Part shown: piece after piece, positions 6,898-8,460 of the stretch
Layout: each line of letters begins with the position of its first letter
Numbering within the stretch: the first letter of the stretch is position 1
Source of the DNA: a virus
DNA: 14,166 nt
UHGV virus genome: UHGV-1657835
Strand: one strand, 5' to 3'
Translations under genes and position numbers: made by a program
The notes under the pieces: model-generated
Databases searched by the model: none
The model's input: the letters and a program-made list of their open reading frames with translations, nothing else
What the model was told of the DNA's origin: nothing

Positions 6898-8160
6898 TCA
6901 GCGAACGTAAATAGTGCCGCCGTTCTCTTTTTCCCATGCATCGCTACGTGCATAGCAAACATCGAGAAGTCTTCTTGCCGCTGTTTCCTCTAAACCCAAT
7001 TCGACAACCAACTGCTCATGACGGCGGGTAACCACATCAAACAGGGTATGCAGCCCTTTAGCTGCCAGATCATCAATAAATTCCGGTTCGAACGGCAGCT
7101 CTGCCTCTGCCAACATAACCTCTTGCGCCCACTCAACTCGACGGACCAGTTCCGGGCGGCGGCTTTCCATCTCTTTACAGATCAATTCATGGAAGAACTC
7201 TACCCAACCTTCCGGCTGGAACTCGCGGAAAATGGCCAACGGCTGGAAGTTTGGCATCAACCATTCGTTGATCCGGATATCAATGGCATAGCCCATGTCG
7301 CAGCAGAACTGATAAGCAAAGTCCAGCTTAGAAACGATATAAGGACGCTCGTTATTGAACTCTTTAGGCGATGAGATCCCATAAGCCAGGAGGCGCGGGA
7401 AGAAGGAGATTTGCCCTAACGTCGGATGAAGTTTGCTTGCAGGGAAACGGCGCTCAGTAATGCCATACATTTCCTTCTTGAGCGTCGCAAATTTGGCATT
7501 CTCATTAACCAGCGCGGTAACCTCTGCTTTTTTATTAGCAAATGCCACGCGCGCCTCGCTTGCATCTTTAATAGTTTTTTTGAGCTGTTGGTTAAGGTCG
7601 GCAACCTGCTTACGCAGTTCCTGTCGCTCGCTTTTAGCTTTGTTATAGCGTTTCTCAAGGTTAAAAGGATCAAGTTTCATGATCTCTTTATATTGAGATT
7701 TTAGCGTTGAAATCTGTGAGTTCCGCAGTTCAACCATCGCGGTCATTTCATTGAGTTTTGTTTCCAGCTCAATGCTTATACGTTCGGCATTATCAGCACG
7801 CTGGTTGGCGTCATGCGTCGCATCGTCGATCGCGTCCTGTTGCTGGCGTTTCAAATGTTCAATTTCCAGCTGAAGCTCTTCAATTTCTTTACCCTTCAGA
7901 CCGAGATCCAACTGCATATTTTCAGCTGCATCTACCAGGGAGTTATGGCTATCAGCTTCTGCGTTATAAACATCAATAAGCTGTGCGTGAAGCATCTCCG
8001 CTGACTGAACCGCATTATCAAAAAAACGCGCTGTGAGGTCATCACAACTAACGCGGCGTTGCGCGGCCCGGATGTTCTGGATAATGGCCGGGATACCGGC
8101 ATTCAGGACGTCAGGGATAGATACATTTTCGATTGATTGGTTTTGTGCTGAAGTGCTCAT
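6898..8160 (-). CDS. Hypothetical protein (420 aa): long N-terminal coiled coil plus C-terminal globular domain
   Basis: ATG 8160, one nt after the upstream TGA. Residues about 60-250 are heptad-like and charged; the C-terminal 170 aa are Trp/Phe-rich. No catalytic motif recognised. Confidence 0.8.
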   Translation of the reverse strand: MSTSAQNQSIENVSIPDVLNAGIPAIIQNIRAAQRRVSCDDLTARFFDNAVQSAEMLHAQLIDVYNAEADSHNSLVDAAENMQLDLGLKGKEIEELQLEIEHLKRQQQDAIDDATHDANQRADNAERISIELETKLNEMTAMVELRNSQISTLKSQYKEIMKLDPFNLEKRYNKAKSERQELRKQVADLNQQLKKTIKDASEARVAFANKKAEVTALVNENAKFATLKKEMYGITERRFPASKLHPTLGQISFFPRLLAYGISSPKEFNNERPYIVSKLDFAYQFCCDMGYAIDIRINEWLMPNFQPLAIFREFQPEGWVEFFHELICKEMESRRPELVRRVEWAQEVMLAEAELPFEPEFIDDLAAKGLHTLFDVVTRRHEQLVVELGLEETAARRLLDVCYARSDAWEKENGGTIYVR

Positions 8161-8161
8161 T

Positions 8162-8380
8162 TCAAAGTTCCGTATTAGCTTGTGCTTCGGTCATTTTTCC
8201 TAAGTATGAAGGAGGAAGGACGACGCAATTTGTATCCAGTCCCTCACCTATGGCAGCCTGTAAAATTCTGGCTAAGGTGAGTCTCTTATTGCGATACCTG
8301 GTGATGACATGCCTGATACCGCCGGTCGGCGTAACAAAGGCGATCAGCCAGTAGTGATATTTCCGTCGGAATGGCCACAT
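8162..8380 (-). CDS. Hypothetical small basic protein (72 aa)
   Basis: ATG 8380 with AAGGTG RBS 5-6 nt upstream. It is the first gene after the operator/inverted-repeat region and is coupled to the 420-aa gene. Confidence 0.7.
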   Translation of the reverse strand: MWPFRRKYHYWLIAFVTPTGGIRHVITRYRNKRLTLARILQAAIGEGLDTNCVVLPPSYLGKMTEAQANTEL

Positions 8381-8394
8381 AGTGCACCTTATAG

Positions 8395-8460
8395 ATTGCT
8401 CTAATAAAAAACGTGATGAGTGTACATCACGTTTTAAAAATATGGAATTATTAGAGCAAT
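8395..8460. promoter_or_regulatory. Composite control region: two inverted C1-operator-like 17-mers flanking an 11-bp inverted repeat
   Basis: Plus-strand ATTGCTCTAATAAAAAA (8395-8411) and minus-strand ATTGCTCTAATAATTCC (plus 8444-8460) each match the consensus at 14 of 17. Between them is AAAACGTGATG-agtgta-CATCACGTTTT (8408-8435), which is followed by a T-run on the minus strand. It sits between the stop of the glycosyltransferase gene and the start of the 72-aa gene. Confidence 0.55.

Follow-up and report, generated by a model that had tools for sequence, protein, structure and literature searches.

The pmgR-pmgS operon of a P7-like phage-plasmid: C1 operators, an intervening hairpin and a predicted helix-hairpin-helix domain in PmgS

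A 14,166-nucleotide stretch of viral DNA (UHGV virus genome UHGV-1657835; hereafter the window) carries, on its minus strand, a gene for a small basic protein followed by one for a long coiled-coil protein, with inverted operator-like sites in front of the pair and a terminator behind it. Judged by nucleotide identity and gene layout, this cassette is an operon annotated before, pmgR-pmgS (in P7, shtA-shtB), of a P1/P7-type phage-plasmid, and the source is a P7-like member of Punavirus P1. The operon would be one of the early operons that are repressed by the main immunity repressor C1, and we consider this explanation, together with the steps set out under the proposed mechanism below, to be probable as a whole. 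The locus itself is well documented, and the new element is a predicted fold at the C-terminus of PmgS.

Identity and Distribution of the Locus

Over the 2001 nt compared (window positions 6700-8700), the identity is 99.2% to phage P7 and 98.4% to phage P1. The feature tables of the P1 and P7 records (AF234172 and AF503408) map one to one onto the window in the order pmgQ, operators, pmgR, pmgS, and pap. Gene lengths, gene order and operator positions are identical and the differences are point differences only, as in the same locus of another isolate. On the 3' side of pap, the window carries the P7 gene set (upf86.8-like, phrog_874) and lacks pmgT of P1. The sequence-only reading had presented the pair as an uncharacterized regulated module; it is instead an operon of a textbook phage, annotated in both GenBank records. 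All elements of that reading were recovered, at most a few bases away from where it had placed them, and they make up a unit of two genes that has operators and a promoter region to itself, a hairpin before it and a terminator after it, within a longer same-strand array (Table 1).

The cassette was found in 687 PLSDB plasmids. Across 77 P1-like phage-plasmids, 21 genes are extremely conserved, both of these included, and pmgS is one of nine PCR markers for finding these elements (PMC9603915). A comparison of related phages had been proposed as a check, and the placement of the cassette proved to be conserved in all P1-like relatives. In 7/7 diverged relatives, the gene directly upstream of pmgS encodes a homologue of PmgR (35-82% identity).

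Table 1. Features of the pmgR-pmgS locus and its flanks (positions in the window).
Feature	Position	Strand	Basis and remarks
pap, HAD-type PNKP-like phosphatase, TTG start	6319..6825	-	18 nt past terminator T-run
Intrinsic terminator after pmgS	6843..6878	-	scan and fold; 11-bp stem, 6 G-C pairs, 7-nt loop, T-run
pmgS (P7 shtB), 420 aa	6898..8160	-	ORF call; AF234172/AF503408
pmgR (P7 shtA), 72-aa basic protein, pI 10.1	8162..8380	-	phrog_3177; ORF call; AF234172/AF503408
pmgR Shine-Dalgarno, AAGGTG	8385..8390	-	read directly from the sequence
C1 operator OpmgRb (former Op86b), ATTGCTCTAATAAAAAA	8395..8411	+	inverted relative to OpmgRa; consensus match, 3 mismatches
11-bp inverted repeat, 6-nt loop, then T6 on gene strand	8408..8435	-	proposed terminator of upstream pmgN-pmgQ (P7 hdm) operon
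Alternative promoter candidate: -35 TCCATA 8446-8441, 16 bp, -10 TACACT 8424-8419 (hairpin loop)	8419..8446	-	sigma-70 match in relatives
GenBank-predicted sigma-70 promoter PpmgR: -35 TTGCTC 8459-8454, 17 bp, -10 TAAAAC 8436-8431	8431..8459	-	mapped from AF234172
C1 operator OpmgRa (former Op86a), ATTGCTCTAATAATTCC	8444..8460	-	overlaps -35 region; consensus match, 3 mismatches
pmgQ / hdmD, last gene of upstream operon	8462..9163	-	ORF call; AF234172, AF503408

C1 Operators and Candidate Promoters

Both operators are annotated at the homologous position in the P1 and P7 records, as OpmgRa and OpmgRb (Op86a/b) in P1 and as Op(sht[a]) and Op(sht[b]) of shtA-shtB in P7. A search with the P1 C1-operator consensus ATTGCTCTAATAAATTT found four sites in the window where 0.10 would be expected, and 0/200 shuffles reached four. 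The two 17-bp operator sequences are inverted relative to each other and flank the promoter, OpmgRb being predicted to lie at or just downstream of the transcription start. They contain a perfect outer inverted repeat of 13 nt (8395-8407 and 8448-8460), each arm of which falls inside a consensus match. The core of OpmgRa, ATTGCTCTAATAA (with ATTAC/TTTGT variants), is kept in seven relatives, and the order of operator, hairpin and inverted operator is kept in relatives with a PmgS that is 53-71% identical. In L005, with a PmgS of 27% identity, the inverted pair is 15 bp long and perfect, and it shares the CTAAT core. Because the inverted operator-like sites noticed earlier are the annotated C1 operators, the regulator is, by annotation and consensus match, the main immunity repressor C1, and no second one is indicated. 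The control by C1 is taken from GenBank, where the note on OpmgRa in AF234172 reads 'controls expression of pmgR and pmgS'; a literature search on Op86/OpmgR returned nothing relevant.

The two candidate promoters in this region are both weak in the window, each with 7/12 sigma-70 positions, and PpmgR as predicted in GenBank has no T at -7. A generic sigma-70 scan of the spacer found no promoter of at least 9/12. The GenBank -10 is not kept in the relatives (TGCGGC in L009, TAAAGG in L003). The promoter with its -10 in the hairpin loop is the best or only sigma-70 match there, with 9/12 in L003, L006, L009, and L010 and 8/12 in L007 and L008, and the loop holds the only conserved -10-like hexamer. 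The GenBank -10 of PpmgR is probably misplaced.

The Hairpin Between the Operators

The space between the operators is filled by the inner repeat AAAACGTGATG-n6-CATCACGTTTT, whose 11-nt arms (8408-8418 and 8425-8435) are 100% complementary and which, as RNA, folds with -13.4 kcal/mol (z = -5.3; 0/200 shuffles as good). It is situated 27 nt past the stop codon of pmgQ and 17 nt upstream of the Shine-Dalgarno sequence of pmgR, and most likely ends the upstream pmgN-pmgQ operon as a putative terminator. Pairing is conserved in spite of sequence drift: among eight sequences, 90.7% of the cells are paired and 4/11 pairs have changed on both sides, and the covariation score of 0.367 compares with 0.259 in shuffles, of which 0/500 reach the observed value, and is higher than that of all slid registers. 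Compensatory changes are spread across seven diverged relatives, and L009 has rebuilt a G+C-rich stem in a shifted register, directly before T6. A stable stem with a T-run (7-11 bp, T5-6) is present in the window, in P1 and in L006-L009. The hairpin is modest, with a 7-bp core and four G-C pairs, and the generic terminator scan passed over the inner repeat, presumably because the maximal stem uses four of the six T's. Rfam has no family in the window.

Termination cannot be the sole cause of the conservation of the hairpin, because L003 and L010 keep the stem (-19 to -21 kcal/mol) and continue with CTTGATT, without a T-run. These stems fit a different reading, which we regard as rather unlikely though worth weighing, namely that the repeat is kept mainly at the DNA level as promoter and operator architecture and is not a terminator. 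The -10 would then be central in a dyad of 66 bp whose outer arms are the C1 operators, and the symmetry might aid repression by C1, through operator pairing or cruciform extrusion, or tune promoter melting. In keeping with this, the full 66-bp unit of operator, hairpin and operator folds with -26.4 kcal/mol (z = -10), the outer arms are perfect 13-mers, and the loop hexamer TAnnnT, the best sigma-70 match, is common to all P1-like relatives. However, the stems drift with compensatory changes and the register shift in L009 keeps both stem and T6, a pattern that selection typically leaves on an RNA hairpin, and not on a DNA recognition sequence. That the C1 operators at other places in P1 act as single asymmetric sites also counts against the DNA-level reading. 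The role as putative terminator of the pmgN-pmgQ operon is the one retained here.

As hairpin, U-run, next promoter and operators all fall within 66 bp, the arrangement resembles the terminator-promoter overlaps known as operon insulators, from which it differs in that the candidate -10 lies in the loop of the putative terminator and the unit is bracketed by inverted repressor sites. A relation of the repeat to late (Lpa) promoters was considered and rejected, the -22 elements of LPpmgL and LPhot (from L001) being unlike the repeat.

The Downstream Boundary

A strong terminator after the 420-aa gene had been recognized from the sequence, and it is present with the G+C-rich stem and T-run given in Table 1 (stem at 6878-6850; -22 kcal/mol including a small upstream hairpin). 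The hairpin recurs in L006, where a G-C pair has become A-T by a compensatory change; that of L005, also G+C-rich and with TTTT behind it, is a different one. To call the cassette insulated was nevertheless an overstatement, since pap follows the terminator by 18 nt and no promoter-like site was found between the two; in relative L010, the next gene even overlaps the end of pmgS. In the window, pap is probably read through from the pmgR-pmgS unit.

Structure and Relatives of PmgS

PmgS matches PHROG 1660 over its full length (E 4.2e-195; residues 1-420 on profile positions 1-403/405). A conserved N-terminal helix is followed by long helices, an alpha/beta plus helical subdomain (residues ~235-350) and a C-terminal domain (~355-415). 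The sequence-only reading had proposed about 190 residues of coiled coil and an aromatic-rich C-terminal part, and both are borne out: in the AlphaFold model, helices 41-160 and 166-232 provide ~190 residues of long helix, interrupted by a conserved LDP break at 163-165, and the C-terminal part is 12.8% aromatic (4 W, 14 F). The same reading had called the C-terminal domain unrecognized. This still applies to residues ~250-350, for which no known fold was matched, but not to the last ~65 residues, which in the predicted structure are an (HhH)2 domain of the Rad51-N/NusA-AR type that is reported here for the first time. The model of the C-terminal part (pLDDT 90.7, pTM 0.85) has the five-helix fold with two helix-hairpin-helix units, and Foldseek aligns it to (HhH)2 with probability 1.0 and a TM-score of 0.77 on the target. 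The family profile, searched against the PDB, finds the Rad51 N-terminal domain (E 3.8e-6). At the level of Pfam, HHH_5 is found in 8/26 family members and RNA_pol_A_CTD in 6/26; PmgS of the window itself reaches the gathering score of no HhH family, so that the signal comes from distant members (8/26) and the family profile.

Known (HhH)2 domains include the N-terminal domains of Rad51/RadA and of Rad51 paralogues, AR1/AR2 of NusA and the C-terminal domain of the RNA polymerase alpha subunit. PmgS differs from these proteins in that a coiled coil and an alpha/beta subdomain of no matched fold are joined to its domain, and in that it lacks their ATPase core, polymerase or NusA body. The canonical G-h-G hairpin motif is also absent: the second HhH of the window protein reads ELGLEE where homologues have KGIG/KGFG. 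DNA binding by PmgS of P1/P7 is uncertain because this motif is degenerate. Having lost the canonical GIG hairpin and being acidic like NusA AR2 (pI 5.05 for the C-terminal half), the P1/P7 domain may, by analogy with AR2, bind protein and not DNA.

In the table of IMG/VR loci, distant homologues of PmgS are encoded directly after the RecT and RecE genes in ~27/36 cases, which include integrated prophages of Brenneria, Yersinia, and Pectobacterium. In Aeromonas phage phiARM81mr, the homologue lies inside an early-region block that runs from exoVIII-RecT to Dam-exonuclease, and in Vibrio phage douglas 12A4 it adjoins a DNA methyltransferase gene. In position, though in nothing else, this resembles the early recombination modules of lambda type (exo-bet-gam; RecE-RecT with accessory genes): PmgS has no sequence or fold similarity to Gam, and P1 itself has no RecET pair at the position of pmgS. 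This guilt by association suggests a role of PmgS in DNA metabolism, and not in morphogenesis. The small protein upstream of the Aeromonas homologue was tried as a relative of PmgR and rejected (hhalign probability 0.6%).

Phenotypes and Proposed Functions of the Two Proteins

For two decades, the names given to PmgS have pointed to the virion: 'putative morphogenetic' in the P1 record, 'sheath contraction' in P7 and 'head morphogenesis' in PHROGs, while the shtA-shtB pair as a whole is called 'sheath structure or assembly' and 'sheath contraction' in the P7 record. An exclusion, abortive-infection or scaffold-like function had also been suggested from the sequence. That PmgR-PmgS is a module for exclusion, abortive infection or anti-defense, or that PmgS is a scaffold or virion protein, seems unlikely to us, although PmgS is dispensable in the laboratory and yet extremely conserved, the region is rich in accessory enzymes (Ppp, Pap, glycosyltransferase-like genes), and PHROGs and the P1/P7 records speak of morphogenesis. 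Searches of PADLOC-DB returned for PmgS only sub-threshold coiled-coil stretches of LmuB/JetC (E 1e-4 to 8e-3) and for PmgR nothing. Likewise, the NCBIfam SMC/Rad50 ATPase models score 16-19 bits against cut-offs of 300-1000 and match only residues 58-235. Since the operon is C1-repressed, it would be off in the lysogen, a poor fit for prophage-encoded exclusion. In-frame deletion of pmgS left plaques and anti-restriction activity unchanged (PMC9024508), and CRISPRi knock-down of pmgS caused no defect (PMC10695390). With regard to the virion, the paper on the P1 virion proteome (PMC9024508) makes no mention of PmgS in its main text and the tables there. A Foldseek search of the C-terminal model against BFVD gave nothing at E <= 0.001 and hence no viral structural fold, nor did the PDB yield a significant match to a virion or scaffold protein, and the operon has no annotated Lpa-type late promoter, unlike structural operons. 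Conserved placement of the cassette is thus combined with a fold that is neither that of a virion nor that of a scaffold protein, and PmgS is probably neither.

For PmgR, the family of which is restricted to P1-like elements, a deletion phenotype has been published. In-frame deletion of pmgR abolishes plaques and infectious virions and leaves tails and incomplete heads that are not joined, a defect that is rescued in trans; PmgR is accordingly reported to be needed for complete, joined virions, and was not detected in the virion proteome (PMC9024508). Unlike the deletion, CRISPRi knock-down did not indicate pmgR to be essential (PMC10695390). Neither PmgR nor PmgS reached a threshold in Pfam, NCBIfam, or PADLOC, where coiled-coil noise was all that appeared, and a PDB profile search with the alignment of PmgR found no match at E <= 10.

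Operator or Attenuator: Two Improbable Roles of the Inner Repeat

Two further suggestions from the sequence concern the inner repeat. Its arms, spaced by 6 bp, form a perfect palindrome that lies over the promoter, and it could be the binding site of a second, dimeric regulator. This is very improbable, as the half-site letters vary among relatives (CGTGATG, CATGGTG, GTGTGGTG, CGGCATG) and only the pairing is conserved, the cassette has no candidate regulator gene, and the operators are the flanking 17-mers for C1, which by GenBank annotation and consensus search explains the regulation alone. It is equally hard to see the hairpin as an attenuator in the pmgR-pmgS leader, despite the T6 and the short distance to the Shine-Dalgarno sequence: with either candidate -10 (Table 1), transcription would begin within the hairpin or past it, so that the cassette's own RNA would lack the 5' arm, the leader predicted from 8424 shows no significant folding (-4.4 kcal/mol, z = -0.67), and there is neither an alternative anti-terminator pairing nor a leader peptide nor an Rfam match that would mark an attenuator or leader riboswitch.

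Proposed Mechanism and Biological Meaning

In the lysogen, C1 would occupy the two inverted operators that bracket the weak sigma-70 promoter, with the -35 side under one and the start site under the other. Upon loss of C1 the promoter would fire, pmgR would be translated from its own Shine-Dalgarno sequence, and pmgS would follow by translational coupling, the stop codon of pmgR and the ATG of pmgS being 1 nt apart (TGA-A-ATG). The hairpin with its U6 would halt read-through from the pmgN-pmgQ operon, and the expression of pmgR-pmgS would therefore depend on its own C1-controlled promoter. At the other end, the terminator after pmgS would stop most transcripts, and pap would be supplied by read-through. 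PmgS would be an elongated protein with a coiled coil and, at its C-terminus, the (HhH)2 domain, and would act early in infection, either on DNA or on a partner bound to it.

A more far-reaching combination, which we put forward tentatively and do not expect to hold in every part, is that PmgS is an early DNA-metabolism factor, that the heads and tails seen in the absence of PmgR result from a packaging-substrate defect, and that the 66-bp dyad is an insulator. If this were true, PmgS would work with phage recombination systems, or replace an accessory of them; it might, for instance, recruit a host protein or bind to DNA ends or intermediates. A defective DNA-packaging substrate, and not a missing connector, would then be why heads and tails stay unjoined when PmgR, its coupled partner, is absent, and the dyad of operator, terminator, promoter and operator would be a compact 66-bp insulator with the -10 in the terminator loop.

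As a genome scan, the outcome is mostly negative, since the operators are in GenBank records of the 2004 era and the deletion phenotypes were published in 2022. The view of P1 biology is unchanged unless experiments follow, and what is gained is a better annotation of a mobile element that is very common. The label 'head morphogenesis', passed on by databases to PmgS-like proteins, lacks experimental support in the case of PmgS, and is at odds with early expression under C1, with the (HhH)2 domain and with the recombination-module neighborhood of the distant homologues. The modest addition made here concerns PmgS, which has the look of a protein that handles DNA early, and not of one that assembles virions.

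Identity of the cassette and published phenotypes

The cassette is the pmgR-pmgS operon of phages P1 and P7, an already known early operon under control of the main immunity repressor C1 through the operators Op86a and Op86b. Megablast with positions 6700-8700 returned 19 phage records, Punavirus P1 every one, with identities of 99.2% to P7 (AF503408) and 98.4% to P1 (AF234172), and the window features are base-for-base counterparts of the GenBank feature tables of both phages. In PLSDB, 687 plasmids carry the same 351 nt, and for almost all of them identity is at least 95%. The feature is real and lies well above chance expectation: the open reading frames, repeats, terminator and basic small protein (pI of the 72-aa PmgR, 10.1) were seen where the sequence-only reading had placed them. 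Every gene in this part of the window lies on the minus strand.

Features in and around the pmgR-pmgS cassette (window positions unless a relative is named)
Feature	Position	Strand	Remarks
233-aa gene (pmgQ/hdmD)	9163..8462	-	upstream neighbour; feature-table mapping
Spacer pmgQ/hdmD to pmgR		-	81 nt
OpmgRa (Op86a)	8444..8460	-	C1 operator
OpmgRb (Op86b)	8395..8411	+	C1 operator
Outer inverted repeat	8395-8407 / 8448-8460		13 nt, perfect; flanks inner repeat
Inner inverted repeat	8408-8418 / 8425-8435		11 nt, exact; 6-nt loop
PpmgR -10 (GenBank)	8436-8431		TAAAAC
pmgR (P7 shtA)	8380..8162	-	72-aa ORF; feature-table mapping
pmgS (P7 shtB)	8160..6898	-	420-aa ORF, 1 nt after pmgR; feature-table mapping
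pmgS terminator	6878-6850		11-bp stem
pap	6825..6319	-	168-aa ORF, TTG start; downstream neighbour; feature-table mapping; pap region 6319-6849
Op88	6303-6319		consensus search
Op82	12068-12084		consensus search
Op83 (Oppp / Op(hdm))	11161-11177	+	annotated C1 operator
Leader hairpin	6248-6270	+	10 pairs, G+C-rich
Motif AATCAATCA	about 6232-6245	-	also L003 8232, L010 5195
28-aa hydrophobic ORF	6134-6220	-	MNTAFKIIMAAIYFWQFSITFGGIVAHG
phrog_874-family gene	6124..5543

In-frame deletion of pmgR in P1 abolishes infectious virions, leaves tails and incomplete heads in lysates and is rescued in trans; PmgR has no HHpred relative and was undetected in the virion proteome (PMC9024508). The pmgS deletion was one of 24 mutants without plaque or anti-restriction defect, and PmgS is absent from the main text of that proteome paper, tables included (PMC9024508). 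In a CRISPRi screen neither gene came out as essential, and pmgR was listed as a miss (PMC10695390), and both belong to the 21 'extremely conserved' genes across 77 P1-like phage-plasmids (PMC9603915). An exclusion, abortive-infection or scaffold role, as once proposed, is unsupported, given the pmgS deletion's lack of a plaque or anti-restriction defect and the absence of any defence-system or ATPase family match to the cassette proteins.

C1 operators and the hairpin between them

GenBank assigns the arms of the outer repeat to the 'monovalent C1-controlled operators' OpmgRa and OpmgRb (formerly Op86a/b), noting for OpmgRa that it 'controls expression of pmgR and pmgS', and a C1-operator consensus search of the window, tolerating 3 mismatches, gave 4 matches (these two, Op88 and Op82) against 0.10 expected. 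The operator-like sites are therefore true operators, but their repressor is C1, the phage's principal immunity repressor, and not a second regulator. Op83, the most divergent operator of the window (TATGTACTAATTAATTT), escaped this search because it has 5 consensus mismatches.

Folded as RNA, the inner repeat reaches -13.4 kcal/mol (z = -5.3) and the whole 66-nt dyad -26.4 kcal/mol (z = -10). Seven diverged P1-like relatives, fetched via PmgS homologues of 71, 69, 69, 64, 53, 53 and 27% identity, all keep the gene order pmgQ-like, small pmgR-like, pmgS-like, with PmgR-like proteins aligning at 35-82% identity. The spacer retains the layout of operator, hairpin and inverted operator in six of them; L005, the remaining one, carries a perfect inverted pair of 15 bp, again with CTAAT as its core. 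Stem sequences vary (CGTGATG, CATGGTG, GCGTGGTG, GTGTGGTG) while pairing persists: 90.7% of the alignment cells are paired, both sides have changed in 4 of 11 pairs, and the covariation score of 0.367 (0.259 in shuffles) was reached by none of 500 shuffles and by no slid register, all of which scored lower. L009 is off the common register, yet has a CGGCATG/CATGCCG stem directly before T6. This covariation support, new but minor, points to selection on pairing rather than on a protein-recognition sequence, which counts against the palindrome as a second regulator's site.

The hairpin lies 27 nt downstream of the pmgQ stop, with T6 after it in P1, P7 and L006-L009, so that its simplest putative role would be that of intrinsic terminator of the upstream C1-controlled operon. 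Termination cannot explain the whole conservation, since L003 and L010 retain the hairpin without a T-run.

The hairpin had also been proposed as an attenuator, on which the promoter bears. PpmgR of GenBank (-35 TTGCTC, 17-bp spacing) scores 7/12 without a T at -7, and at its -10 position L009 and L003 have TGCGGC and TAAAGG, respectively. The hairpin loop is TACACT, TATCAT or TATTAT in all P1-like relatives and, with a -35 at 16 bp upstream, forms the sigma-70 match that scores highest (four relatives at 9/12, two at 8/12, the window at 7/12); this -10 is better conserved than the annotated one, a new but minor observation. Either way, transcription is predicted to begin within the hairpin or 3' of it, so the operon's own RNA would lack the 5' arm; as the remaining leader is also unstructured (z = -0.67), an attenuator is unlikely. 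If the loop -10 is used, Op86a would lie over the -35 flank and Op86b at about +1 to +17, a plausible geometry for repression.

Downstream boundary and neighbouring features

The pmgS terminator is strong, with 6 G-C pairs in its stem and a T-run; L006 carries a compensatory change in it and L005 a different G+C-rich hairpin. Neither a promoter scan of the window nor the GenBank annotation places a promoter between this terminator and pap, which is thus probably expressed by read-through. The description of the cassette as insulated is only partly right, with pap starting 18 nt beyond the T-run and the gene after pmgS in L010 overlapping the pmgS end.

The leader between Op88 and the upf86.8/pmgT-like gene contains a 28-aa ORF, preceded at a distance of 7 nt by an AGGAG Shine-Dalgarno sequence, present in P1 and P7 with one substitution and annotated as CDS in neither record; genes called in L007 and L008 share its conserved N-terminus. 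A hairpin shortly after the Op88 promoters is rated a terminator by the scan of the plus strand, antisense to all genes there; read on the gene strand, it forms a stem-loop in the 5' leader with an A-run in front of it. The motif AATCAATCA, at times reiterated as AATCAATCAATCA, stands directly 5' of the Shine-Dalgarno sequence in several P1-like operon leaders. Upstream of the pmgO-pmgS block, and separated from it by a few small genes, L003 and L005 have a DarB-like methyltransferase-helicase gene of ~2,260 aa, where P1 and P7 have tail/baseplate genes 25 and 26.

The PmgS family and its genomic context

No relatives of PmgR were detected beyond P1-like elements, and homologues of PmgS are scarce: a word-indexed search gave 29 clusters, and an exhaustive search of residues 225-420 against 1.84 billion representatives gave 41. 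Some 25 distant members, full-length and 20-33% identical, have the same architecture. In the full-length model (pLDDT 75.7), helices 41-160 and 166-232 are separated by an invariant LDP motif; the C-terminal 188 residues are 12.8% aromatic. Residues 228-420 were modelled confidently from a 24-sequence alignment (pLDDT 90.7, pTM 0.85), and the last ~65 residues have the fold of a tandem helix-hairpin-helix, (HhH)2, domain, a new but minor assignment. Foldseek concurs, the family profile matches the Rad51 N-terminal domain (E 3.8e-6) as well as NusA and the alpha C-terminal domain of RNA polymerase (~1e-4), and HHH_5 matches 8 of 26 members. The second hairpin motif is degenerate in P1/P7 PmgS (ELGLEE vs KGIG) and the domain is acidic; by analogy with NusA AR2, protein binding is as plausible as DNA binding. 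Structure searches gave no fold match for residues ~235-350 (three strands plus helices). Many distant homologues (P0048-P0069, alignment A3) end in -AA (EAA, KAA, TAA, NAA, VAA), recalling ssrA-like degradation tags; P1/P7 PmgS ends in YVR.

In nearly all loci of the Brenneria/Yersinia/Pectobacterium type, the PmgS-like gene is overlapped at its 3' end by a ~158-aa ORF (L018 7083-7559; same position in L011-L044), which may be a conserved partner there; the 151-aa gene p12 of Aeromonas phage phiARM81mr likewise overlaps the end of its PmgS-like gene.

In IMG/VR loci related to the distant homologue P0048, which are prophages integrated in Brenneria, Yersinia and Pectobacterium, the PmgS-like gene mostly comes after genes for a RecT-like annealing protein and a RecE-like exonuclease (about 27 of 36 loci, tallied by eye from the table) and is followed by a phrog_874 gene, a family also present in the window. 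A DNA methyltransferase follows it in Vibrio phage douglas 12A4, with an Ant/methylase/DnaC block opposite, and the phiARM81mr copy has exoVIII-RecT-integrase on one side and Dam-exonuclease on the other. None of these neighbourhoods is a morphogenesis module. This recombination-module context is new but minor; together with C1-controlled early expression, the absence of PmgS from the main text and tables of the proteome paper, and the (HhH)2 domain, it leads us to favour, by association and tentatively, a role of PmgS in DNA metabolism.
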